A DNA stretch of 64,000 nucleotides from Nocardioides sp. (GCA_017354415.1 JAFMQY010000001.1:28-64027), one strand, 5' to 3'; positions 30,037-42,282 are shown, numbered from the stretch's first letter. Program-made: numbers and translations. Notes: generated by a model from the sequence alone, not told the origin.

Positions 30037-30924
30037 ATGCTTCGGTTCGAAGGGGCGGTGAAGCACTTCGGAGCGCTGACCGCCCTGGACGGCTGCACCT
30101 TCGTGGCGCGACCGGGTCGGCTGACCGGGTTTCTCGGTCCCAACGGCGCGGGCAAGACGACCGCCATGCGCGCGGTCTTCGGGCTGGTGACACTGGACGC
30201 CGGGACCGTCACGTGGCGCGGGGACCCCATCCGCGCGGCGGGGCGCTCGCGGTTCGGGTACATGCCGGAGGAACGAGGCCTGTACCCGCGGATGCACGTG
30301 CGGGAGCAGTTGCTGTACCTCGGCGAGCTCTGCGGGCGTCCGGCCGCCGACGTCGGTCGCGTCGCGGATCGGTGGCTCGAGCAGCTCGGGCTCTCGTCCC
30401 GTGCTGACGCCAGGGTCGACGAGCTGTCCCACGGCAACCAGCAGCGCGTGCAGCTGATCGCGGCACTGGTCAACCAGCCCGATGTACTCGTCCTCGACGA
30501 GCCGTTCGCCGGCCTCGACCCCCTGGCCATGGATGCCATGGGGGGTCTGCTGGAGGAGCTGGCGACTACCGGGGTCACGGTGCTGTTCTCAAGCCATCAG
30601 CTCGACCTCGTCGAGGACCTGTGCCACGACGTGGTCATCCTCGATCACGGTCGGGTCGTCCTCGCCGGCGAGCTCGAGGAGCTCCGAGCCGCGTCGACGC
30701 AACGCGTCGTCGACATCAGGTTCCGGGGCCGGGAGCCACGGTGGGGTGAGCTGCGGCACGTGCAGGTCCGAGAGAGCAGTGACGGACACGTCAGGCTCAG
30801 CGTGGACCGAGCCCAGCACCTGCAGGCCCTTCTCGCGCAGCTGCACGGCTCCGACGAGGTCGTGTCCTTCAGCTACCAGCCGCCCACCCTTTCCGACCTG
30901 TTCACGCGGGCGGTGGCGTCATGA
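30037..30924 (+). CDS. ABC-2 type exporter ATP-binding subunit
   Basis: GPNGAGKTT, LSHGNQQR, VLDEPF, SSH. Confidence 0.93.
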   Translation: MLRFEGAVKHFGALTALDGCTFVARPGRLTGFLGPNGAGKTTAMRAVFGLVTLDAGTVTWRGDPIRAAGRSRFGYMPEERGLYPRMHVREQLLYLGELCGRPAADVGRVADRWLEQLGLSSRADARVDELSHGNQQRVQLIAALVNQPDVLVLDEPFAGLDPLAMDAMGGLLEELATTGVTVLFSSHQLDLVEDLCHDVVILDHGRVVLAGELEELRAASTQRVVDIRFRGREPRWGELRHVQVRESSDGHVRLSVDRAQHLQALLAQLHGSDEVVSFSYQPPTLSDLFTRAVAS

Positions 30925-32324
30925 CCGGGTGGGGCCAGGGATGGCTCGTGGCGCGCCGCGAGATCCGCGAGCGCAGTCGCACACGTGGGTTCCGGGTGAG
31001 CCTGGTGTTGATGGTGGTCGTCGTCGTCGCCCTCGTCGCACTCCCAGGCCTCTTCCGGAGCGGCGACACGACCAAGACCGTGGGAGTGGTCGGGACCACC
31101 CCTCTGACGTTCACCCAGCTGCTGGTCGCACAGGGCGATGCCGCCGACACGGGCATCGAGGTGTACGGCTTCGACGCTCTGCCGACCGGTCAGGAGGCCC
31201 TCCGAGACCACCAGGTCGACGTACTGGTCGTGAACACACGGACTCTCCAGTGGCGAGACAAGACGGACCCGTCCCTGCAAACGTTGATCACCACCGCGAT
31301 CCATGTCTCGGTCGTTCAACAGCGTGCAGCCGCAGCGGGAATCGACTCCGCGACGACCGCCGAGCTGCTCGCGCCCGTACCCGTCTCGAACACCGCCATC
31401 GGCGCGGTAGCCGGACGAAGCGCGGGTGATGCCACCGCCGCGGCACTGATGACCATGGCCTTGATGGCTGCGATCGTCATCTACGGCAACCTGGTGCTCA
31501 CGGGAGTGGTGGAGGAGAAGTCGACCCGTGTCGTTGAGGTGCTGCTGGCCCGGGTTCCGGCCAGGGCCCTCCTGGCAGGCAAGGTGGTCGGCATCGGGCT
31601 TCTCGGGTTCTTCCAGCTCGCGGTCACCGCACTCGCGGCCTTCGTGGCGTCCATCCCCGGCGACTCCGTGGACCTGCCGGCAGTTTCCGGGGGCGTCCTG
31701 GCCTGGGTGGTCGCCTGGTTCCTCCTCGGCTACGCCCTCTACGCCATGATGTACGGCGCCCTGGGGTCGTTGGCCTCACGCACGGAAGATGCGCAGAACG
31801 TGGCGGGTCCCGTCAGCTACGTGATGATCGCCGGCTACTGGGCGTCGTTGTTCGCGATCAGCCAAGACCCTGAGGGGCTGTGGTCCCGACTTCTCTCGCT
31901 GTTCCCCGCGACGGCGCCCCTGGCCATGCCCGGCCGGATCGCCCTCGGGGCCACCACCTGGTGGGAGCCACTCGTGGCGGTGGCCCTGATCCTCGCCGCG
32001 ATCGCCGGCCTCGTCATGGTGGCGGGACGGGTCTATGGCAATGCCATCCTGCATTCCGGTGCCACGCTGAAGCTGCGGGACGCCTGGCGTGCCTCCCAGG
32101 GCAGCGCCCGTGGCGCAACGTCGACGCAGGTCGAGAAGGTGACGCAGATGCTGTCAACACCGCAGGCTTCCAGGATCCTGGCGGTCGCCGCGATCGTCCT
32201 GGGCGTGCTCACGTCGGTCGTGATCTTCGCCTTGACGAGGGACGTCGTCTGGAGCCTGGTCCCGCTCTTGCTCACCATCGGGGCTGTCCGTGGTCTGCGT
32301 CATCGCGCAGGGCGGCACGGGTGA
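30921..32324 (+). CDS. ABC-2 type exporter permease (NatB/YhaP-like)
   Basis: WLVARREIRER, extracellular loop, VVEEKSTRVVEVLL, multiple TMs. ATGA coupling to the ATPase gene. Confidence 0.9.
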   Translation: MTGWGQGWLVARREIRERSRTRGFRVSLVLMVVVVVALVALPGLFRSGDTTKTVGVVGTTPLTFTQLLVAQGDAADTGIEVYGFDALPTGQEALRDHQVDVLVVNTRTLQWRDKTDPSLQTLITTAIHVSVVQQRAAAAGIDSATTAELLAPVPVSNTAIGAVAGRSAGDATAAALMTMALMAAIVIYGNLVLTGVVEEKSTRVVEVLLARVPARALLAGKVVGIGLLGFFQLAVTALAAFVASIPGDSVDLPAVSGGVLAWVVAWFLLGYALYAMMYGALGSLASRTEDAQNVAGPVSYVMIAGYWASLFAISQDPEGLWSRLLSLFPATAPLAMPGRIALGATTWWEPLVAVALILAAIAGLVMVAGRVYGNAILHSGATLKLRDAWRASQGSARGATSTQVEKVTQMLSTPQASRILAVAAIVLGVLTSVVIFALTRDVVWSLVPLLLTIGAVRGLRHRAGRHG

Positions 32325-32334
32325 TCGTCGCCGC

Positions 32335-33261
32335 TCACGACACGAACGGCACGACCGCGACGGTCAGGAACAGCAGCGTCAGGTACAGGTTGGACAGGTG
32401 GAAAAGGCGCAAGGGCCGAAGTGTTGCGAGCTCGTCGGACGTCGACGCCCGGCGCAACAGCTGCCAGGACTCGCTCACGAGCACCGCACCGAGGACGAGC
32501 GCGACGCCCGGGTAGAGGACTCCGGTGCCAGCTACCGGCCACAGGAGCAGTGACGTCAGGAGCGTGACGATCGAGTATCCGAGGATCTGGCGGGCAACCG
32601 TACGGGTCGGTGCGACCGAGGGGAGCATGGGCACACCCGCGCTTGCGTAGTCCTCCCGGTAGCGGATCGCCAAGGCCCAGAAATGAGGGGGCGTCCAGAA
32701 GAAGACGACGAGGAAGAGCACGAACGGCGCCCACCCCAGGCTGCCGCGTACGGCGGTCCACCCGATGAGCGCGGGGAAGCATCCTGCGACACCGCCCCAG
32801 ACGATGTTCTGTGCGGTTCGCGGCTTGAGCAGGACCGTGTAGCCGACCACGTAGAACGCGTTGGCTGCCAGCGCCAGCGCCGCGGAGAGCCAGTTGACGA
32901 GGAGGCCGAGGACGAGGGTCGAGACGACCGCGAGCATCAGGCCGAAGACGAGCGCGTCGCGTCGGGATACCTGGTCGCGGGCCAGTGGACGTCTGCGTGT
33001 CCGGCGCATGCGAGCATCGATGTCGGCATCGACGACGCAGTTGAGCGCATTCGCACTGCCCGCCGACAGGCTGCCGCCGACCAGCGTGGCGACCACGAGT
33101 CCGAGCGGCGGTACGCCGTCTTGCGCCAGGAACATCACCGGCAGTGTCGTCAGCAGCAGCAGCTCGATGATGCGGGGCTTCATCAGGGCGACGTACGCCG
33201 CGACGAGTCCCCGCATGCTCACGACGCGCACGCCACCCTCGATCTTCAGCTCCGCTGTCAT
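32335..33261 (-). CDS. ctaB: Heme O synthase (protoheme IX farnesyltransferase)
   Basis: LMKPRII, DADIDARMRRTRRRP, FFWTPPHFWAL, DYASAGVPMLP. Confidence 0.95.
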   Translation of the reverse strand: MTAELKIEGGVRVVSMRGLVAAYVALMKPRIIELLLLTTLPVMFLAQDGVPPLGLVVATLVGGSLSAGSANALNCVVDADIDARMRRTRRRPLARDQVSRRDALVFGLMLAVVSTLVLGLLVNWLSAALALAANAFYVVGYTVLLKPRTAQNIVWGGVAGCFPALIGWTAVRGSLGWAPFVLFLVVFFWTPPHFWALAIRYREDYASAGVPMLPSVAPTRTVARQILGYSIVTLLTSLLLWPVAGTGVLYPGVALVLGAVLVSESWQLLRRASTSDELATLRPLRLFHLSNLYLTLLFLTVAVVPFVS

Positions 33262-33800
33262 GACGCCGCCTTCCTGAGAGCCTGGTGCAACATGTCGGGG
33301 CTCAGTGGCCCCACGACGCGAGCCACCACGATGCCGTCGGCGGTCACGATCAGCGCGCTGGGAATGCCGTTCTGCGGGAGCATCCGAAGCCCGCCGAGCA
33401 GGCGTCCGTCAGGGTCGTGGAGGCTCGGGTAGGTGACGCCGTGATCGTCGGCGAAGGCGAGGGCACGGCTGGCGCTGTCTCGCTCATCGATCCCGAGCAC
33501 CCGGACCCCCTGTCGGGCGGCCCGGGCGAGGAGAGGAAGCTCCTGACGGCACGGGTAGCACCAGGACGCCCAGACGTCGACGACGAGCGGCGACCCCGCG
33601 GCGTAGGACGACGCGGTCAAGCTCCGGCCCGACAGTGTGGTGCCCGCCAGTGCGGGCAGCCTGACACGGTCGCGGGGGGAGAAGACCGTGAGCCCCACCG
33701 TCGAGCCCGAGTGGCTCTGCCGACCAGCGCTCGAGCTGCACGAGGGTGCGAGGACGGCCAGGAGCCCCAGCATGAGGAGCACGGCAAGCGGCCTGATCAC
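33258..33800 (-). CDS. TlpA/ResA-like thiol-disulfide oxidoreductase, probable lipoprotein
   Basis: DVWASWCYPCRQELP. Signal peptide with Cys (LAPSC). Start GTG 33800 overlaps the SCO stop. Confidence 0.88.
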   Translation of the reverse strand: MIRPLAVLLMLGLLAVLAPSCSSSAGRQSHSGSTVGLTVFSPRDRVRLPALAGTTLSGRSLTASSYAAGSPLVVDVWASWCYPCRQELPLLARAARQGVRVLGIDERDSASRALAFADDHGVTYPSLHDPDGRLLGGLRMLPQNGIPSALIVTADGIVVARVVGPLSPDMLHQALRKAAS

Positions 33801-34549
33801 TGCGAACCGCCCCCCAGCATCCAGTCGAGCGCCTTGGTCACCTGGGCCGGCGTCCAGGCCCCGGAGTCCGGGGCCTGCGCGTTGCGGTGCCCGAGCCCGT
33901 CCATGAAGTGGAAGATGCGCTGGGGGATCCGCTGGGGCTTGACGCTCCCCGGACCCTCCATCTCGTACCGGTAATGCTGTGCGCCGTTGATGAAGACGAG
34001 CTCGTCGGTGTGCGCGATGTCCGTGGTCAGCGGACGGCCGGTCAGCCAGTCGGTCGGGTACGGCGGGTGCAGCCGGATCTGGTGACGCCAGACGCCCAGC
34101 CGCGACCACAGGCTGTTGACGACGGTGGGAGACCCGCGCAGCGCGGTCCAGTTGGCGAGCGCCCCGAACTGGTGTCGATAGGCACGCAGGTGGCGCAGGT
34201 CATCGCGTTGCGGGTCGATCGTCAGACTCACGAACTCCACGTCCTTGCCCACGCGCGTGCGGTCGACCTGCCGGGCTGCGGCCAGCATGCTCGCGGTCAC
34301 CAGGGGGCAGGTCTCCTGGCACAGGGTCATCACATCCGACAGGACGATGATCTTGCCGCGCCACTGGCCCAGCGTGACGTGATGACCGTTCTGGTCGACC
34401 AGGGGCGCGTCGAGGATCGTCTGCGGAACGGGCGCGTCGAGAACCGTGCCGAAGCCTGGCGCAGCCGGCGTGGCGGCCGCGTCCTCGTGGCCGGACGCTG
34501 CGCCGCATCCGGCCGTCGCAGCGGCCACTGCGGTGAGAAGCAGAGCCAA
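33797..34549 (-). CDS. SCO1/SenC family copper chaperone, lipoprotein
   Basis: TLCQETCPL (CxxxC), LTIDPQRD, DIAHTD His, lipobox TAGC. Start approximate. Confidence 0.88.
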   Translation of the reverse strand: MALLLTAVAAATAGCGAASGHEDAAATPAAPGFGTVLDAPVPQTILDAPLVDQNGHHVTLGQWRGKIIVLSDVMTLCQETCPLVTASMLAAARQVDRTRVGKDVEFVSLTIDPQRDDLRHLRAYRHQFGALANWTALRGSPTVVNSLWSRLGVWRHQIRLHPPYPTDWLTGRPLTTDIAHTDELVFINGAQHYRYEMEGPGSVKPQRIPQRIFHFMDGLGHRNAQAPDSGAWTPAQVTKALDWMLGGGSQ

Positions 34550-34591
34550 GACGATTCCGCGCAGTCGGCCAACGCTGTACGGTGATCCACC

Positions 34592-35452
34592 GTGCAGGAG
34601 GTCGGGTCGCTGCTGAGCGCGTGGGAACCCGCCCCGCTTCCGTGGCTCGGATGTCTCGTCTTCGCCCTGGTGTACGTCGCGGCCGCGCGCAGTGTGACCG
34701 CTCGGACGCCGACCCAGCCGTGGCCGGCGTCCCAGACCGTGTGCTGGCTGGCCGGGACGTTCATCGTGTGGGTCTCCCTGGTGGGTCCGCCCGGCGCCTG
34801 GGACGATGTCTACTTCTACGCGCACATGACCCAGCACATCCTGCTGACCAGTCTCGCCGCGCCGCTCCTGGTGCTCGGGGATCCGATCCTCCTGCTGGCG
34901 AGGTTCGGCAGACCCGACTGGCGTCGCCGTCGTCTGGTGCCGGTGCTGCGCAGTGACACCCTCCGGTTCCTGACCCACCCGGTGACGGGGTGGGTGGTGT
35001 TCGTCGGGGTGATGGGCCTGAGCCACATCCCGGCCGTGTACGACTTCGCCCTCGACCACCCGGCGGTGCACGACTACGTCGAGCACCCCCTCTACCTGGC
35101 GGCGGGGATGCTGTACTTCTACCCGCTGCTGGTGGCGACAGCGGGCCGGCAGGTGCGGCACTGGGTGCGCATCGTGTCGCTGTTCACCTCGATGGTGTTC
35201 ATGGCCTTCCTCGGGTTCTTCATCTTCGCCCTGCCGAGCGTCGCCTACCCGTTCTACGCCCACACCGACCGTCCGTTCTCACCCGGGCCGCTGGCCGACC
35301 AGCATGCGGCCGGCATCCTGATGTGGTCGGGGTCGATGGTCGTCAGTGTGGTGTGGCTGGTGGTGGCCGGCCACAACTGGCTGATGGCCGAGGAGCGGCG
35401 TACTGCGCGGGAAGCCGTGCGTGCGGCTGCCGGAACGGAGCCTGCCGTATGA
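34592..35452 (+). CDS. Cytochrome c oxidase assembly protein, CtaG (Caa3_CtaG) type
   Basis: FYAHMTQHILL...APLLVLG, HDYVEH, DQHAAGILMW. Confidence 0.88.
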   Translation: MQEVGSLLSAWEPAPLPWLGCLVFALVYVAAARSVTARTPTQPWPASQTVCWLAGTFIVWVSLVGPPGAWDDVYFYAHMTQHILLTSLAAPLLVLGDPILLLARFGRPDWRRRRLVPVLRSDTLRFLTHPVTGWVVFVGVMGLSHIPAVYDFALDHPAVHDYVEHPLYLAAGMLYFYPLLVATAGRQVRHWVRIVSLFTSMVFMAFLGFFIFALPSVAYPFYAHTDRPFSPGPLADQHAAGILMWSGSMVVSVVWLVVAGHNWLMAEERRTAREAVRAAAGTEPAV

Positions 35453-35793
35453 GCAGCTCGTCGCCCGGACCCACGTGGCGCTATCACGTCTTCTTCTCGT
35501 GCGCCGTCATCGTGTGCCTGGCGGCCGGCTGGTTCGAGCTGGGCCGCGCTCGAAGCGGTCGTGAGATCGCGTGGGTGTACACCTTCGAATGGCCGGCGTT
35601 CGCCGCGGTGTTCGTGTTCATGTGGTGGCGTGTGGTCGCGGACCGACCGACCCGCCGACCGGCGCCGCCGGGTGGCGGCACCGGCCGCGACGTGATCCCC
35701 GACGACGACCCGGGGCTGCGGGCCTGGCGGAACTACCTCGCAGAGCTGGAGCATGACGACGACGGCACAGACCGCGCACCGGGATCCGGCTGA
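35449..35793 (+). CDS. Conserved small membrane protein of unknown function
   Basis: GWFELGRARSG...WVYTFEWPAFA. ATGA coupling with ctaG. 3' end overlaps the coxC-like gene by 61 bp. Confidence 0.6.
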   Translation: MSSSSPGPTWRYHVFFSCAVIVCLAAGWFELGRARSGREIAWVYTFEWPAFAAVFVFMWWRVVADRPTRRPAPPGGGTGRDVIPDDDPGLRAWRNYLAELEHDDDGTDRAPGSG

Positions 35794-36404
35794 TCCTTGG
35801 CCAACGGGCAGCCGACCGTGCCGTTGGCGACCGAGATCGTCAGCGTGCCCACGAACGCCGCCACGCACACCCACGTGTACCAGATCCCCACGATCCGGAC
35901 GTGCCAGTCACGTGCGCCCCGATTGGCCCCGCGCTGCCGCCGGATCGCGATCCCGAGTCCCAGGAAGACTGTCAGGGCGAGGTGGAAGACATTGGCTGCT
36001 GTGATGATCCAGACCGCAGCGGAGTAGGCGTTGTCGCTGACCGTGAACGGGAACTGGTACATCTGGACGATGGTCAGCACCAGTGCCACGGCCATCCCCG
36101 CCACCGACACCGCCACGCCGTTTGCGAAGCTGCCGCGCAGCTGCGTCCAGTAGGCCAGCGCCGACAGCACCATCACCGCCGAGACGGTCCAGGGCCACCA
36201 GAGGGTGGCGACGCCGGTACCGCCGGGGTGGAACGAACCCTGGGTGTCGAGCGCACGCAGGTACAGGAAGCTGAACGAGAGCGCCGCGACGAACGCCGCA
36301 TCGGCCAGGATCAGCAGCAGTGCCCCGACCCGCCATCTCTCACCGAAGTCGTGAGGCTCCTCGGGTGCGAAGGCTTCCTTGTTGACCAGCGACTCGGTGC
36401 TCAT
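35733..36404 (-). CDS. Heme-copper oxidase subunit III-like (short, divergent)
   Basis: About 5 TM, YSAAVW...NVFHLAL...G, C-terminal WYTWV. ATGA coupling to subunit I. Confidence 0.75.
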   Translation of the reverse strand: MSTESLVNKEAFAPEEPHDFGERWRVGALLLILADAAFVAALSFSFLYLRALDTQGSFHPGGTGVATLWWPWTVSAVMVLSALAYWTQLRGSFANGVAVSVAGMAVALVLTIVQMYQFPFTVSDNAYSAAVWIITAANVFHLALTVFLGLGIAIRRQRGANRGARDWHVRIVGIWYTWVCVAAFVGTLTISVANGTVGCPLAKDQPDPGARSVPSSSCSSSAR

Positions 36405-38329
36405 GCCGGGGCTCCTGGAACGTCGGCTTCAGCCCCGGCCGACGCCGGCACTGGTTCGGGCTCTGACTCGGGGACCGGTTCCTCGCCGTACCCGTAGGCG
36501 TCCTCCGTGACAACCGGCAGGACTGCGAAGTTCTCCAGCGGGATCGGGTTCGGAACGGTCCACTCGAGCGTCTTGGCACCCCACGGGTTCATCGGCGCCA
36601 GGTCTCCGTGGCGCCAGGAGCTGATCACGTCGTACAGCAGGACCAGCATGCCGATGCCGATGCAGTAGGCGCCCAGCGTGGAGATCGTGTTGCCCGTGTG
36701 GAAGCTGGCGTCGTAGTGCACGACTCGGCGGGGCTGTCCTTGGAGGCCGACCATGAACATCCCGAGGAAGGTCACGTTGAAACCGATCTGCACGAGCCAG
36801 AAGGAGACGAACGCCGGAGTGTTGCCGAGCATCCGTCCTGTCATCTTGGGGAACCAGTAGCCCAGTGCCCCCATCGCTCCGGTCAGACCGGCTCCCATCA
36901 GGGTGTAGTGGAAGTGGGCGGTCACGAACATCGACCCGTGGAGCTGGTAGTCCAGCGGCACGTCCGACAGGTAGATGCCGGTGATGCCACCGATGATGAA
37001 GTTCCACAGCATGGCGTAGGTGCACATCATCGGGAAGGCGGTCCAGATGCGACCACGCCAGATCGTGCCCAGGATGACGAGGAACAGGCCGCCTGTGGGG
37101 ATGGAGATCATCTCCGTGGTGAGCATGAAGGGACCGTTCAGGTCCGGGGCCCAGCCGGAGGCGAACATGTGGTGGGCCCACACCGTCGCGCTGAGTCCGA
37201 CGATCGCGATGATCGAGAGCACGGCGATCCGGAAGCTGAACAGCGGCTTGCGCGCGAACACCGCTGTCAGCTCCATCAATGCGGTGACCGCGGGGATCAG
37301 GATGACGTAGACCTCCGGGTGGCCCATCAGCCAGAAGAGGTTCTGGTACAGCCAGGGCTGGCCACCTCGGTTGGGCACGTAGAAGCCGCCGCCCATGACC
37401 CGGTCGACGAAGAGCAGGAGCTCTGCGGCCATGAAGAACGGGAAGGCCGGCAGCGCGAGCACCACGCTGGCGAGCACGCCGTACACGAAGATGGGCGTGC
37501 GGGTCCACGTCATGCCGCGGGCTCGCATGGTCACGATCGTGGTCGTGATGTTCATGCCGGCCACGGCAGTGGAGACCGCGAACACCAGGATCGCCATCAT
37601 GTAGGCGTCGACTCCGGGAGGGCCCTGGTCGGCGATCGGTGTGTACCCGACCCAGCCCATCGGGATGCCGCCCAGGAAGGCCGCCGAGTACAGGATCGGG
37701 AGCATGGCCACGAGGAGCCAGAAGCTGAGTGCGTTGAGCCGCGGGAACGCCATGTCCCGGGCACCGATCATCAGCGGCACCACGAAGTTCCCGAACGGGC
37801 CGGTGACCATGATGATCGTCGCCAGGATCATGGTCAGGCCGTGCAGGCCGACCAGAGAGTTGTAGGTCTGGGGGCCCAGGAAGCCGCTGTTCGGCGAGAT
37901 GAGGTCCGTCCGGATCAGCATGGCCATGGATCCACCGGCTCCGAGCATCACCATCACCAACACGAGGTACTGGATGCCGACGACCTTGTGGTCGGTGGTG
38001 AAGCGGAAGTACCGACCGACTCCCTGGTCCTTGCCGGCGAGGAAGAGCTCGTCGGCGTGCGTGAGATCGCGTCCGACCAGCCACCGAAACGGGCCCGTGA
38101 AGGCACCCATGCCGAGCAGGAAGCCGACCGCCCAGCCGAACATGGTGAACACGGCACGCACGTCGGGCTCGTGGGTGTGTCCGTCCGCGAGCTTCTTCGC
38201 GAGGACGTTGGCGACGACCGCGAGGACGATGCCGGCGATGATTCCGGTGCCCACGTTGAGGCGCCGCATGATCCCGCCGTGCGGTGCGACCGGCGAGGGA
38301 TCGGTCTTGTAGATGTCCGCGGTTGTCAC
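36401..38329 (-). CDS. Heme-copper oxidase subunit I, A-type with atypical K-channel
   Basis: TTDHKVVG, LHG, DMAFPRLN, GHPEVY, WAHHMF, AHFHY, PRR. AGGAGA RBS before GTG 38329. Confidence 0.95.
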   Translation of the reverse strand: MTTADIYKTDPSPVAPHGGIMRRLNVGTGIIAGIVLAVVANVLAKKLADGHTHEPDVRAVFTMFGWAVGFLLGMGAFTGPFRWLVGRDLTHADELFLAGKDQGVGRYFRFTTDHKVVGIQYLVLVMVMLGAGGSMAMLIRTDLISPNSGFLGPQTYNSLVGLHGLTMILATIIMVTGPFGNFVVPLMIGARDMAFPRLNALSFWLLVAMLPILYSAAFLGGIPMGWVGYTPIADQGPPGVDAYMMAILVFAVSTAVAGMNITTTIVTMRARGMTWTRTPIFVYGVLASVVLALPAFPFFMAAELLLFVDRVMGGGFYVPNRGGQPWLYQNLFWLMGHPEVYVILIPAVTALMELTAVFARKPLFSFRIAVLSIIAIVGLSATVWAHHMFASGWAPDLNGPFMLTTEMISIPTGGLFLVILGTIWRGRIWTAFPMMCTYAMLWNFIIGGITGIYLSDVPLDYQLHGSMFVTAHFHYTLMGAGLTGAMGALGYWFPKMTGRMLGNTPAFVSFWLVQIGFNVTFLGMFMVGLQGQPRRVVHYDASFHTGNTISTLGAYCIGIGMLVLLYDVISSWRHGDLAPMNPWGAKTLEWTVPNPIPLENFAVLPVVTEDAYGYGEEPVPESEPEPVPASAGAEADVPGAPA

Positions 38330-38351
38330 GGCCTTGTCTCCTGTCGCTCGC

Positions 38352-39125
38352 TCATGCGTGACCTCCCTGCCCCGCGATCCATGTGTCGAAGTCGTCGGAT
38401 GTGACGACCCTCGCGTTGGTCTCCATGTCGGCATGGAGAAGCCCGCACAGCTCGGCGCACCGGACGTGGTACAGGCCGAGCCGGTCCGGGACGGTCGACG
38501 TCGAGGTGGTCACGCCGGGGTTGGCGTCGACCTTGATTCCCATCTCCGGCAGCCAGAACGAGTGGATGACGTCGTCACTGGTCACCTTGAAGACGACCGG
38601 CCGGTTGACCGGCAGGACCAGCTGGTCGGACTCGACTCCCTGCGAGGGGTAGCTGAACGTCCACACCCACTGCTGCCCGGTGACATCGATCTCGAGGGGG
38701 GTCGCCCCCGAGGCCGCGGCCGAGTCCACCTTGCTCAGAGCGGCGAGTCCCCAGATGAGAAGGAACAAGCAGAGCGCGGACGACAGGAAGATCCAGATGC
38801 CCGAGGTCATGCCGTGACCTCGCAGAGGGGGCCCGTCCGGGTCGCCCTCCTTCCAGGCGCCTCTCCGTCGCCAACGCATGAGGCTGTAGACAGCCAGCGC
38901 CCAGACGACCGCGGCAACGGGCGCCGACGCCACGGAGAACATGGTGAACGTGCGCTCGACCTCGGTCATCGTGTTGCTCGCCGAAGGTCCCATCAGGTGA
39001 TGCGGAACGATCAACGCGAAGATCACCCCGAGAACCGTGAAGATCGCCCACAGGATTGTGAGTGTCTTCAGCTCCTCGCTGCGTGACCGGCCTTGGCGAT
39101 CCGCCGGTGTCGTTTCGACCGACAC
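38352..39125 (-). CDS. Heme-copper oxidase subunit II with CuA site
   Basis: GQQWVWTFSY, DVIHSFW, CAELCGLLHADM. Three N-terminal hydrophobic segments. Confidence 0.93.
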   Translation of the reverse strand: MSVETTPADRQGRSRSEELKTLTILWAIFTVLGVIFALIVPHHLMGPSASNTMTEVERTFTMFSVASAPVAAVVWALAVYSLMRWRRRGAWKEGDPDGPPLRGHGMTSGIWIFLSSALCLFLLIWGLAALSKVDSAAASGATPLEIDVTGQQWVWTFSYPSQGVESDQLVLPVNRPVVFKVTSDDVIHSFWLPEMGIKVDANPGVTTSTSTVPDRLGLYHVRCAELCGLLHADMETNARVVTSDDFDTWIAGQGGHA

Positions 39126-39147
39126 AGTGCCCTCCCAGTTTCGGCCG

Positions 39148-39828
39148 TCAGGAGACGGTGAAGGTGCCCGACATGTAGCCGCGGGTCGACATGGGTCCGC
39201 CGAACTTGGCGTAGTAGCCGTCGCCGCACGGGAACTCGCAGTTCCAGATGTACTTGCCCGGGCCCTTGGTGTGGAACGAGAACGTGACCTCGATCGGCTT
39301 CGGGTAGTCGCTACCAGCAGCGATCGGCGCGTCGTCCGGTACGGCGGGCAGCGGCGCGCTCACGAACAGCGGATCCTGCGCGGTCGGTGCCGCGTGCAGC
39401 GTCCAGGTGTGTCCGACCGCCTCCGGGTCGATCTGCGTGACCGGCTTGCCGTCCACGGTCTCGGTGCCACCGACGGTGCCGTGCACCTTCGCGAACCACG
39501 GGTTCGTGATCGCCTCGCCGCCGTCGTACTGGCTGATCGTGATGGTCACCAGTGAATGCGCCGGCACGTTGATGTTGGTGCCCGGCCCGTAGCTGACCCA
39601 GTCCGGTTCAGCACCGCCGTCTTTGCCGTGCTCTCCGGCCATGCTGTCCGGGTACGTATCCAGATGGACGTAGACGTGGTGCTGCTCCGTGGCCGACGGC
39701 GGTGTCGCCGCCGTGACACGTGCCGCCACTGCTGGACTCAAGCTTTGATGCAACAGCAGGCCCAAGACCGTGACGAATGCCCCCCCAAGCAAGACAGTCA
39801 CGATCGGGCCGATGAGCTTCTTACCCAT
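39148..39828 (-). CDS. Membrane-anchored cupredoxin-fold protein, first gene of the oxidase operon
   Basis: N-terminal TM, VPAHSLVTITI beta strand, GHTW, and GKYIWNCEFPCG...GGPMSTRGYMSGTFTV cupredoxin-like C-terminal loop. Confidence 0.75.
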   Translation of the reverse strand: MGKKLIGPIVTVLLGGAFVTVLGLLLHQSLSPAVAARVTAATPPSATEQHHVYVHLDTYPDSMAGEHGKDGGAEPDWVSYGPGTNINVPAHSLVTITISQYDGGEAITNPWFAKVHGTVGGTETVDGKPVTQIDPEAVGHTWTLHAAPTAQDPLFVSAPLPAVPDDAPIAAGSDYPKPIEVTFSFHTKGPGKYIWNCEFPCGDGYYAKFGGPMSTRGYMSGTFTVS

Positions 39829-40100: not shown

Positions 40101-40484
40101 ATGAAGCTCCACCGTCGCAACCGACGTACCGATCCGCGTTGGCAGGTCGCGGCGTCCATCCGGGTCGTCAGCGCAGACCGGCAGACTGTCAACAGGCTGG
40201 TGCGCGAGGTCGACACCGACGTGGGTGAGCGCGAGCTCGACGGCGTTGTGATCGGGCGTCGACATCCGACCGGCTGGTTCATCCACGCCGTCCGGCGAGA
40301 CGATCTGGCGGGGGAGGATCTCGACTCCTTCAGGGACCTCGTCACCGTGCGCTCGTACCTGCTGCTCCGGCAGGGGCCCGTCCCGCCCCTCTGGAAGCCG
40401 GCGCCCGGGGCTCATGAATGGCGGTCGGCTGCGGATTCGTCAGCCGCCGATATCGCCGGCATCGTCCGTGACCTGGGACGCTGA
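40101..40484 (+). CDS. Hypothetical protein (127 aa)
   Basis: Ordinary amino-acid composition and GC3-rich codons between the oxidase promoter region and the response regulator. No recognised motif. Confidence 0.45.
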   Translation: MKLHRRNRRTDPRWQVAASIRVVSADRQTVNRLVREVDTDVGERELDGVVIGRRHPTGWFIHAVRRDDLAGEDLDSFRDLVTVRSYLLLRQGPVPPLWKPAPGAHEWRSAADSSAADIAGIVRDLGR

Positions 40485-40583
40485 CGCGGCCGATCTCGAA
40501 TCGATCCGCCACTTGACCGGTCCCACCCCAAGGGTGGTTACACTGACGCGACTTTTGTGTCACGGGGGAAGTTTGGGGTGGCC

Positions 40584-41243
40584 ATGTCCCGCGATCGCGT
40601 CCTGGTGATCGACGACGAGCCTCGCGTCCTCCACTTCGTCTCGCGGGCGCTCCGTGCTGAGGGCGTTGACGTCGACAGCGCGGAGGGCGGTGAGGAGGGC
40701 TGTCGGCTGGCGCTCTCGCAGCCGTATCGACTGGTCATCCTCGATCTCGTCATGCCGGGGGTCGACGGGATGACCGTGCTGAAGCGGCTGCTGCACCACA
40801 AGCCGGATCAGGCCGTGCTGATCCTCTCGTGTCTGAGCGACACCAGCACCAAGGTGCGAGCGCTCGATCTGGGCGCGGCCGACTACCTGGGCAAGCCGTT
40901 CGCGCTCAACGAGCTGATGGCCCGGGTCCGCGTGAGGATGCGGGTACGCCACGACGGCTTCGTCCTGAGCGCCCATGACTTCGTCCTGGATCCCGTCCGC
41001 CACGAGGTCAAGACGCCCACCAAGACCGTGCTGCTGACCCGGACCGAGTCGGCTCTGCTGGGAGAGCTGATCCAGCACGCGGGCGAGAGCGTCTCGAAGG
41101 AGCGGCTCCTCTCGGAGGTGTGGGGCTACCAGTTCGACCCCGAGACCAACGTCGTGGACGTCTACGTCCGGCGGATTCGCAAGAAGCTCGGTGCGACAGC
41201 GATCTCAACGGTGCGAGGAGTTGGCTATGGCGTCGATCTCTGA
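40584..41243 (+). CDS. OmpR/PhoB family response regulator
   Basis: VIDDE, ILDLVMP, GAADYLGKPF, VWG...TNVVDVYVRRIRKKL, TVRGVGY. Confidence 0.94.
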   Translation: MSRDRVLVIDDEPRVLHFVSRALRAEGVDVDSAEGGEEGCRLALSQPYRLVILDLVMPGVDGMTVLKRLLHHKPDQAVLILSCLSDTSTKVRALDLGAADYLGKPFALNELMARVRVRMRVRHDGFVLSAHDFVLDPVRHEVKTPTKTVLLTRTESALLGELIQHAGESVSKERLLSEVWGYQFDPETNVVDVYVRRIRKKLGATAISTVRGVGYGVDL

Positions 41244-42282
41244 GGTGTCCATCAGCGCCCCGCGACGTACCGCTCTCGTCTGGCACCAGTACCGGGTCGA
41301 CATCCTGTGGTGGTGCTTCGTCGCGATCAACGCCTGGGCAATGCTCGTGCTCAGCGTGTGGGCCACGGTGCCGTTCCACTTCATCTGGATCGGTGTCTCG
41401 CTGATGTACGGCTGGCGCGTGTGGACCATGAGGGTCACCTTCGTCTCGCTGTCCGTGATCGTCGTGGTCACGGGGGCGATGCTGCTGGACGACGTCTTCC
41501 GGGGTACCCAGGCGCCCGACGAGCTCACGGAGATCCCGCTGATGGCGGCGGTCTTCCTCGTGATGGTGCACTACGTGCGGCGCAGCGCCGCCGCGCAGCA
41601 GGAGACCGCGCGGGTTGCGGCGCACAACCTCGCCCTGGTCGAGCAGAGCCGGACCCTTGTACAGAACGCCTCCCACGTGCTCCGCACGCCGCTCACCATC
41701 GCGCTGGGTCATGCCGAGCTCTTGGAGCGCACCGCCACCGGTCCCGAGACGGTCGATGACGCCCGCGTCGTCGTCGACGAGCTGAACCGGCTCACGAAGG
41801 TCACCGACCGTTTCCTGGGACTGGCCAAGAGCGAACAGCCCGACTTCCTCTCCCCGGTCGAGACTGCGGTCGGAGACCTGGTGATGCGTACGGCCACTCG
41901 ATGGATGGCCACGCATCCGCCCGTCAGCCTCGGTGTCGTGGTGAACGAGGTCATGTCGGTCGATCCCGACCGCCTGGCCGAGGCCATCGACGAGATGATC
42001 GGGAACGCCGTCGTCCACTGCCCTCCAGGCACGCCGGTCGAGGTCTCCGCAGGCCGGCGCGCCGGCCGGTATGTGATCTCGGTGGCGGACCGCGGCGCGG
42101 GGATCCCGGCCTCGATGACGGCGTCCGTCTTCGAGCGTTTCAGCCACGGGACCGGCACCAGCCGTCGCGGAGCTGGCCTGGGGCTCGCCATCGTCAAGGC
42201 GATCACCGAGGGGCACGGTGGCACGGTCAGGGTCCGCAGTCGTGAAGGGGGAGGCACGGTCCTGGAGATGGCGCTGCCCTGA
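41227..42282 (+). CDS. Membrane sensor histidine kinase (HisKA-HATPase)
   Basis: About 5 TM, H-box SHVLRTP, N-box GNAV, DRGAGI, GAGLGL. Confidence 0.92.
   Translation: MASISEVSISAPRRTALVWHQYRVDILWWCFVAINAWAMLVLSVWATVPFHFIWIGVSLMYGWRVWTMRVTFVSLSVIVVVTGAMLLDDVFRGTQAPDELTEIPLMAAVFLVMVHYVRRSAAAQQETARVAAHNLALVEQSRTLVQNASHVLRTPLTIALGHAELLERTATGPETVDDARVVVDELNRLTKVTDRFLGLAKSEQPDFLSPVETAVGDLVMRTATRWMATHPPVSLGVVVNEVMSVDPDRLAEAIDEMIGNAVVHCPPGTPVEVSAGRRAGRYVISVADRGAGIPASMTASVFERFSHGTGTSRRGAGLGLAIVKAITEGHGGTVRVRSREGGGTVLEMALP

Follow-up and report, generated by a model that had tools for sequence, protein, structure and literature searches.

A predicted accessory A-family heme-copper oxidase in Nocardioides with a cupredoxin-like protein as its candidate partner

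What does an oxidase operon headed by a gene for a cupredoxin-like protein add to a respiratory chain that, in the usual picture of Actinomycetota, consists of a bcc-aa3 supercomplex and cytochrome bd? The question is raised by a 64,000-nucleotide stretch of DNA from Nocardioides sp. (GCA_017354415.1, JAFMQY010000001.1:28-64027), which is referred to here in its full length as the window. In this stretch, a gene for a membrane-anchored cupredoxin-like protein, designated Cup, precedes the genes for oxidase subunits II, I, and III. Judged from gene content and sequence comparison, the window oxidase is an extra terminal oxidase beside the bcc-aa3 supercomplex and cytochrome bd of the same genome. 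On balance, we favor with modest confidence the proposal that it is an accessory A-family oxidase for which Cup acts as a dedicated electron-entry or CuA-supporting partner.

The source genome, that of a soil actinobacterium, is a metagenome-assembled genome (MAG) of 4.05 Mb in 346 contigs that is 90.6% complete, and it carries two COX1 and two COX2 genes. The canonical genes lie on contig C19 as ctaC-ctaD-ctaF and ctaE-qcrCAB, and their products were scored against actinobacterial NCBIfam models with curated cut-offs. CtaD reached 1009.6 bits (NF050116, cut-off 880), QcrB 770 bits (cut-off 500), QcrA 381 bits (cut-off 275), QcrC 337 bits (cut-off 200), and CtaE 319 bits (cut-off 190). By comparison, subunit I of the window yielded 417.1 bits with NF050116, which models the actinobacterial aa3 CtaD, and 528 bits with TIGR02891 (cut-off 670.75), and thus lies under both cut-offs. 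The window and canonical copies from this genome are 38% identical for subunit I and 30% identical for subunit II. A maximum-likelihood COX1 tree separates accessory from canonical proteins with 100/100 support, and CtaD from Mycobacterium smegmatis nests in the canonical clade. Genes for cytochrome bd are on contig C60, a single ctaA gene is on C4, and the only cytochrome c domains found in the genome are the two in QcrC. An earlier sequence-only reading of this DNA had proposed a second terminal oxidase at a locus devoid of cytochrome c, qcr, ctaF, and ctaA genes, with a separate canonical ctaD to be sought elsewhere. Both points are borne out, in that these genes sit on C19 and C4 and the canonical ctaD is among those on C19.

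Both COX1 types, canonical and cup-type, were present in 12/12 other cassette-bearing genomes tested, including the complete 1.5-Mb genome of the acI strain IMCC19121. A mis-binned contig was considered as a source of the second oxidase and rejected, because the complete 4.07-Mb chromosome of a close relative (L011) holds both oxidases. Its two subunit I genes each share 92-93% identity with the counterpart of matching type in the window genome. Some carriers have further subunit I genes, including one of a distant third type (G011:C29, L118; 170 bits), and canonical COX1 copies are duplicated in carriers G008, G009, and G012 (G012:C8, L117/L120).

Key residues of the window enzyme were evaluated by aligning 69 subunit I relatives with canonical CtaD proteins, M. 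smegmatis CtaD, and the caa3 oxidase of Thermus thermophilus. Residue numbers for the window protein (H143 to H454, N161, D172, N179, E319, and Y321) are counted from the Met codon at position 38269. The six His ligands for heme a, heme a3, and CuB (H143, H317, H366, H367, H452, and H454) and the cross-linked Tyr of helix VI (Y321) are invariant in 69/69 relatives. Also present in the window protein are the D-channel residues N161, D172, and N179 and residue E319 of the sequence HPEVY, which is the A1 signature. In canonical numbering, Y288, N121, N139, and E286 (of HPEVY) are kept in 69/69 relatives and D132 in 68/69, and the Arg pair is invariant. Subunit II has a complete CuA site (H188 and C223-A-E-L-C227-G-L-L-H231-A-D-M234) whose ligands are kept in 76/76 relatives. 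Its entry Trp is invariant, it has no cytochrome c domain, and its best match in the PDB is subunit II of the T. thermophilus caa3 oxidase. Subunit III has no Pfam match when searched alone. A profile built from 16 relatives, however, matches COX3 chains in the PDB (E value 4.5e-14), and 10 of these 16 match PF00510. The conserved residues show that the window encodes what is predicted to be a complete, conserved, CuA-containing A-family O2 reductase with an intact catalytic core, and its heme type is probably aa3. Since CuA, the D-channel, E286, and the Tyr are all preserved, a nitric oxide reductase or a quinol oxidase was rejected as an identity for this enzyme. Three hydrophobic segments (18-47, 59-83, and 105-136) occur in subunit II compared to the usual two, and the first may be an uncleaved signal anchor.

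The enzyme differs from its housekeeping counterpart in having two extra N-terminal helices, in the loss of the canonical K-channel from both subunits, and in its divergent subunit III. Hydropathy analysis places two hydrophobic segments (24-49 and 59-78) before canonical helix I of subunit I, and this N-terminal extension aligns from residue 1 in distant relatives. The K-channel Lys is absent in 69/69 relatives, wherein its position is occupied by Leu (54), Ile (10), Phe (4), or Val (1). In the window protein, the corresponding motif is IPTGGLF, with Leu where Lys is expected. Met, Leu, or Phe replaces S299, and the residues at positions Y280/S291/K354/T351/S357 are Y-M-L-T-V. Likewise, the Glu at the K-channel entrance in subunit II is Ser in the window and absent in 75/77 relatives. 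One cup-type subunit I gene (L055/G005:C1:512757-514036) is split into at least five frame fragments and represents either a pseudogene or an assembly error.

Cup is modeled as an N-terminal helix (residues 6-26) followed by an outward-facing beta-sandwich. The protein has no match in Pfam or NCBIfam, the CuA domain model PF00116 included, and every one of the 842 homologs found is annotated as hypothetical. An AlphaFold2 (AF2) model based on a 41-sequence alignment had a mean predicted local distance difference test (pLDDT) value of 87.6 and a predicted template modeling (pTM) score of 0.77. When this model was compared to the PDB with Foldseek, matches were obtained to auracyanin (1qhq, E value 1.5e-5) and to the cupredoxin AcoP (7z3i, E value 6.5e-4), and also to ba3 subunit II, rusticyanin, and domains of nitrite reductase and N2O reductase. 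A search of the PDB with a Cup sequence profile likewise retrieved auracyanin B (E value 2e-4).

Among 78 oxidase-linked relatives of Cup, residues H140, C197, P200, C201, G202, M213, and M219 are invariant or nearly so (76-78/78), which gives the site the form His...CxxPCG...GPM-x5-M. In the alignment with auracyanin, C197 corresponds to the type-1 Cys, and C201-G202 falls where the C-terminal His ligand stands. The type-1 ligand set is thus only partly present, with H140, C197, and M213 in place and the C-terminal His absent in the 78 relatives. Compared to the CuA consensus, Cup retains the C-x3-C-G spacing and is missing the second His. By sequence and modeled fold, then, Cup is a cupredoxin-fold protein with a non-canonical, strictly conserved putative copper site. 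The possibility that Cup is a recent duplicate of the neighboring subunit II was rejected, as hhalign comparison with the COX2 family gave a probability of 1.6% and an alignment that was out of register.

Other members of the Cup family were encountered during these searches. Two metagenome proteins (P0246 and P0232) carry two tandem Cup-type domains, each of the form HTF...CExxCG...AMSTxGWM. P0246 matches the Pfam COX2 model PF00116 with 35.5 bits, which hints that the Cup family and CuA domains may be connected. Distant members located away from oxidase genes include L125/L126, G529:C1, and G447:C11, and one distant member adjoins genes for DrsE, TusA, and a pyridine-nucleotide disulfide oxidoreductase. 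Stand-alone Cup copies are present in two Nocardioidaceae genomes, and the copy in G529 is a second Cup gene.

The association of Cup with the oxidase was assessed by scanning one genome per species with the Cup alignment. At least 575 genomes matched, and locus counts given here refer to the best 80, which represent Nocardioidaceae, Propionibacteriales, Dermatophilaceae, Frankiales, Pseudonocardiales, Blastococcus, Jatrophihabitans, Nanopelagicales (acI), and Acidimicrobiales. The coxII gene lies directly downstream of cup in 77/80 loci, coxI is near cup in 76/80, and coxIII directly follows coxI in 69/80. Even distant actinobacterial cassettes, whose COX1 proteins are 40-46% identical, retain the order cup-coxII-coxI. 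The ctaG gene is near cup in 73/80 loci, and an open reading frame (ORF) for a small membrane protein, always beside ctaG, is present in 70/80. The positions of tlpA (41/80), ctaB (39/80), and sco (32/80, within 9 kb) are variable. This synteny comparison shows strict co-conservation of the cupredoxin gene with coxII-coxI-coxIII and assembly genes that travel with the oxidase genes, both in support of the sequence-only reading. Median identity among relatives is 56% for Cup, 49% for COX2, 40% for SCO, and 36% for COX3. Unbiased clustering of ORFs from 81 loci revealed no dehydrogenase, cytochrome, or conduit gene conserved nearby and yielded only assembly genes and antisense shadow ORFs. A protein of ~580 amino acids, in which a large polytopic membrane domain is fused to a C-terminal SCO/thioredoxin-like domain (CSxxCP), is encoded near the cassette in 19/80 loci (L026, L027, L029, L032, L035, L040, and 13 more).

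We propose that Cup, anchored in the membrane and facing outward, would bind copper through its His/Cys/Cys/Met/Met site next to the CuA domain. It would serve the window oxidase specifically, as an electron entry or relay into CuA, in the place that a cytochrome c domain occupies in caa3 oxidases. Upkeep of CuA function, which has been suggested for AcoP, may be a further task. The presence of CuA in subunit II implies a protein electron donor, and since no c-type cytochrome other than QcrC was found in the genome, the most likely electron source would be menaquinol, by way of the bcc complex. Given the CuA site, the lack of a cytochrome c domain in subunit II, and the AcoP-like position of the cup gene, the role that we consider most likely for Cup, by analogy with AcoP, is that of a dedicated electron-entry or CuA-supporting partner. 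A more specific form of this proposal is put forward tentatively, and we consider it somewhat doubtful. Cup would hold a copper centre that is undescribed in cupredoxins, either a mononuclear His-Cys2-Met centre or a CuA-like binuclear centre with Met in place of the second His, and would constitute the obligatory electron entry point of a widespread, K-channel-less, proton-pumping A-type oxidase.

Note that several observations weigh against such a role for Cup. The protein does not have the C-terminal His of type-1 and CuA sites, so that a carrier role, and with it the sequence-only reading's proposal of a copper protein in place of QcrC as the feeder, is putative. The loop that forms the site is modeled with low confidence (pLDDT ~56 at residues 201-210), and more distant Cup relatives occur without cox genes. 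Sites rich in Cys and Met characterize Cu(I) chaperones no less than electron carriers; the Sco site has the form CxxxC...H, and the PCuAC site is composed of His and Met. Moreover, no PCuAC gene (PF04314) was found in the ~90%-complete genome, so the chaperone niche is open. Finally, the K-channel Lys is essential in model A-type oxidases, and the proposal does not explain how an A-type enzyme turns over without it.

Some of these observations favor a different function, in which Cup would be a copper chaperone or CuA-maturation factor analogous to PCuAC or CtaK that supplies subunit II with Cu(I), in concert with SCO and TlpA, outside the electron path. We regard this alternative as unlikely but worthy of serious consideration. 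The Cup ligand set of His, CxxxC, and two Met residues resembles Sco and Met-rich Cu(I) sites, and the absence of a detected PCuAC gene, the SCO and TlpA genes of the cassette, and a neighboring regulator that is CopR/CusR-like, though below the model cut-off, are all consistent with copper delivery. A role in CoxB maturation has also been raised for AcoP (PMC10804444). However, the order of cup is fixed with coxII-coxI-coxIII and not with sco, which is nearby in only the 32 loci noted above. Cup has no PCuAC profile match, and the PCuAC motif H(M)X10MX21HXM is absent from it. Its nearest folds are electron-transfer cupredoxins and CuA domains, with no PCuAC protein among the 50 best Foldseek matches listed, and Cup is more conserved than the assembly factors.

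The remaining alternatives concern the origin and present function of the oxidase itself. Acidimicrobiia branch first in both the accessory and the canonical COX1 clades, and the two relatives that group with the window genome's copy are the same in either clade. The accessory COX1 tree roughly follows taxonomy and mirrors the canonical CtaD tree for genomes that are shared. These mirrored clades point to the accessory oxidase as an old paralogue. Its distribution is patchy, in that the cassette was found in 6/401 genomes sampled evenly across the phylum, in 13/201 genomes of the family, and in 0/13 other genomes of the same genus. Nucleotide similarity (~79%) to the four closest relatives extends from position 32335 to 42279-42282 and is abrupt at both ends, which coincide with the ctaB stop codon and the kinase stop codon. 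The flanks in these relatives match other contigs of the window genome, and therefore a block of ~10 kb resides at different sites in closely related genomes. Cup was not found among 72,556 plasmids by tblastn. The left end has no space for a mobile-element scar, as the ctaB stop lies only 10 bp from that of a convergent ABC-2 permease gene. When patchiness and non-orthologous sites are set against a tree that follows taxonomy, sequence comparison fits loss, relocation, and the horizontal transfer proposed in the sequence-only reading alike.

A horizontally acquired lithotrophic oxidase that receives electrons from an Fe(II)- or Mn(II)-type donor via the cupredoxin, as in the Acidithiobacillus rus pathway, appears very improbable. 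The window system does share its architecture with the rus-operon oxidase (cup, coxBAC, a COX1 with two extra transmembrane (2TM) helices, and caa3_CtaG), its distribution is patchy, and the flanks of the block differ in close relatives. In addition, the same COX1 type is tabulated for iron-oxidizing Acidimicrobiia (PMC8239418, supplementary tables). Nevertheless, conservation near the cassette in the 80 genomes is limited to assembly genes and extends to no cytochrome, outer-surface oxidase, or conduit gene, and neutral-soil lineages as well as the streamlined genomes of freshwater acI bacteria retain the cassette. The metal-ion donor entertained by the sequence-only reading is thus not supported, since no dehydrogenase is conserved nearby either. 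The hosts are Gram-positive cells without a periplasmic rusticyanin pool, and both the lack of plasmid copies and the COX1 tree that mirrors the canonical CtaD tree also argue against this origin. It is scarcely credible that the locus is a decaying or silent duplicate with no present function, as might be suspected from the missing K-channel Lys and the fragmented subunit I of L055/G005, given that no metal ligand or D-channel residue varies among 69 relatives from two classes (except D132, 68/69), no reading frame is interrupted and starts are coupled, even a 1.5-Mb genome has kept the cassette, and K-channel loss is uniform across the clade and not sporadic.

The gene map (Table 1) was derived from six-frame ORFs and from Pfam and NCBIfam scans, with starts refined from the DNA, in a region with a G + C content of ~68%. 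The start codon of coxI is most likely the GTG at 38329, with AGGAG located 9 nucleotides upstream, and the first ATG of the ORF is less likely. The resulting length of 642 amino acids compares with 644-650 called in relatives. Gaps of 22 nucleotides separate cup from coxII and coxII from coxI, the latter containing the AGGAG sequence. The coxI stop overlaps the coxIII start by 4 nucleotides, the ctaG stop overlaps the ATG of the small ORF by 1 nucleotide, and sco/tlpA and tlpA/ctaB overlap through GTGA and ATGA, respectively. These overlaps indicate translational coupling, and together with the map they suggest three transcription units plus a divergent unit encoding a 127-amino acid protein (ORF127), a response regulator, and a histidine kinase. 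The map shows a predicted operon, cup-coxII-coxI-coxIII, with coupled assembly units ctaG-small ORF and sco-tlpA-ctaB. A promoter and terminator scan of the locus gave nothing above shuffled sequences at 68% G + C, a composition at which such a scan carries no information. All genes named in the sequence-only reading (for cupredoxin, subunits II, I, and III, CtaG, SCO, TlpA, and CtaB) are present, with ctaG on the opposite strand. The boundaries proposed there, 32335-39828, do enclose these genes, but the small membrane ORF had been missed and the conserved block reaches 42282, as it takes in the ORF127-response regulator-histidine kinase unit.

Table 1. Positions of the oxidase cassette and adjoining genes in the window.
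Gene or unit	Position	Strand	Product and supporting matches
cup	39148-39828	-	226-amino acid membrane-anchored cupredoxin-like protein; first gene of the operon
coxII	38352-39125	-	Subunit II, CuA; PF00116, TIGR02866 162.6 bits (cut-off 147.7)
coxI	36401-38329	-	642-amino acid A-family subunit I; PF00115 397 bits
coxIII	35733-36404	-	223-amino acid divergent 5-helix subunit III; profile versus PDB COX3
ctaG	34592-35452	+	Caa3_CtaG type, copper-insertion/assembly factor; PF09678, E value 1.9e-54
small membrane ORF	35452-35793	+	113 amino acids; family unassigned
sco	33797-34549	-	SCO1/SenC copper chaperone, probable lipoprotein; PF02630
tlpA-like	33258-33800	-	Thiol:disulfide oxidoreductase; AhpC-TSA/Redoxin; DsbE/TlpA models below cut-offs
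ctaB	32335-33261	-	Heme O synthase; NF003349 424.9 bits (cut-off 246)
ORF127-response regulator-histidine kinase	40101-42282	+	127-amino acid ORF, OmpR-type response regulator, and histidine kinase (Pfam); divergent from cup
ABC ATPase and ABC-2 permease pair	30037-32324	+	Converges on ctaB

The cassette sco is the only SCO gene detected in the genome by tblastn, and second copies of ctaB and ctaG are found elsewhere, on contigs C170 and C19, respectively. The 113-amino acid protein has no relative in Pfam or the PDB that could be found. Its invariant motif, WFE..RA..G...AWVY.FEWP (E29, R32, G36, W41, Y43, and E46-W47-P48), and its constant location beside ctaG are compatible with a protein that may be an unrecognised assembly factor or small subunit. 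Pfam and PDB searches revealed no family for ORF127. The best NCBIfam match of the response regulator is the heavy-metal CopR/CusR subfamily model TIGR01387 (177.7 bits, below its cut-off of 279.2), and the histidine kinase has a membrane-embedded N-terminus. A response regulator-histidine kinase pair 38-50% identical to that of the window lies beside 3/4 distant cassettes (L127, L128, and L129). Through this CopR/CusR-like two-component system, expression may respond to copper or to the state of the envelope. The ABC ATPase/ABC-2 permease pair is not kept beside the cassette in other loci.

If the assignment is correct, a third oxidase exists in at least 575 species-level genomes, mostly from uncultured soil and freshwater lineages. 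Its features raise the questions of how an A-type oxidase with an intact D-channel turns over without the K-channel Lys, and what copper centre results, and whether it serves electron carriage or copper delivery, when the C-terminal His of a cupredoxin is replaced by Cys. Answers would inform the mechanism of oxidases, the chemistry of copper sites, and the energy metabolism of Actinomycetota that are abundant in the environment. Should the undescribed Cup centre prove real, the actinobacterial respiratory chain would have a separate branch that uses copper only and is retained even in the streamlined genomes of freshwater acI. Full-text literature searches yielded no experimental paper on an oxidase of this type or on Cup. 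As far as could be found, no description exists of the Cup variant, of the small membrane protein coupled to ctaG, or of the systematic occurrence of this oxidase alongside the canonical supercomplex.

The oxidase class itself is already catalogued by sequence. The supplementary tables of Degli Esposti, Moya-Beltran, Quatrini & Hederstedt (2021; PMC8239418) list a '2TM Chloroflexi & Actinobacteria' COX1 subclade with two extra transmembrane helices, the HPEVY motif, a missing canonical K-channel, and a linked caa3_CtaG gene. Members named there are Acidithrix ferrooxidans, Acidimicrobium ferrooxidans, and Ca. Dormibacter. By its predicted features, the window oxidase matches this class, as it has the extra helices, HPEVY, no canonical K-channel, and a ctaG gene nearby in most related loci. 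Its Y-M-L-T-V pattern is also the one tabulated for Acidimicrobium ferrooxidans, and Acidimicrobiia MAG copies branch at the base of its COX1 clade. PMC8239418 offers a classification by sequence only and, as far as could be found, makes no mention of Cup, its ligand set, the small membrane protein, or co-existence with a canonical ctaD.

The closest functional parallel is AcoP, a membrane-anchored cupredoxin that binds its oxidase, sustains its activity, and may transfer electrons (PMC10804444). In the rus operon of Acidithiobacillus ferrooxidans, as in the window, a gene for a cupredoxin with a single transmembrane anchor lies directly upstream of coxB-coxA-coxC, and the rus-operon oxidase is likewise listed with a 2TM extension and a modified K-channel (PMC8239418, supplementary tables). 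The analogy with AcoP drawn by the sequence-only reading is therefore fair in position and architecture, because Cup heads the operon and its model matches the fold of 7z3i. In contrast, AcoP has a classical His-Cys-His-Met green type-1 site whereas the Cup site is His-Cys-Cys-Met-Met, and a profile search detected no sequence-level relation between the two proteins. The window system also is without cyc1, cyc2, and rusticyanin, and its hosts are not acidophiles.

Auracyanins from Chloroflexus and Roseiflexus provide the best profile and fold matches to Cup and share its arrangement of membrane tether, linker, and cupredoxin domain. They act as electron carriers that link a quinol oxidoreductase to terminal acceptors. 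However, auracyanins have a canonical type-1 site and do not head an oxidase operon, whereas Cup has Cys and Gly at the place of the His. Among solved structures, the T. thermophilus caa3 oxidase (2YEV) is the best match to the window enzyme (391.9 bits for subunit I and 106.1 bits for subunit II), and it too has an electron-entry module additional to CuA, as proposed for Cup. That module is a fused cytochrome c, whereas here the cupredoxin is encoded by a separate gene, and the Thermus enzyme, of the A2 type (YSHPTVY), has the K-channel Lys as well as a fused I+III subunit. Finally, the oxidase of the bcc-aa3 supercomplex, as known from M. smegmatis and Corynebacterium glutamicum, belongs to the same phylum and A family, has a 5-helix subunit III, and is encoded in the same genome as the window oxidase. 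The latter is distinguished from it by the extra helices, the absence of ctaF and of the K-channel, and its placement in a separate, fully supported COX1 clade.

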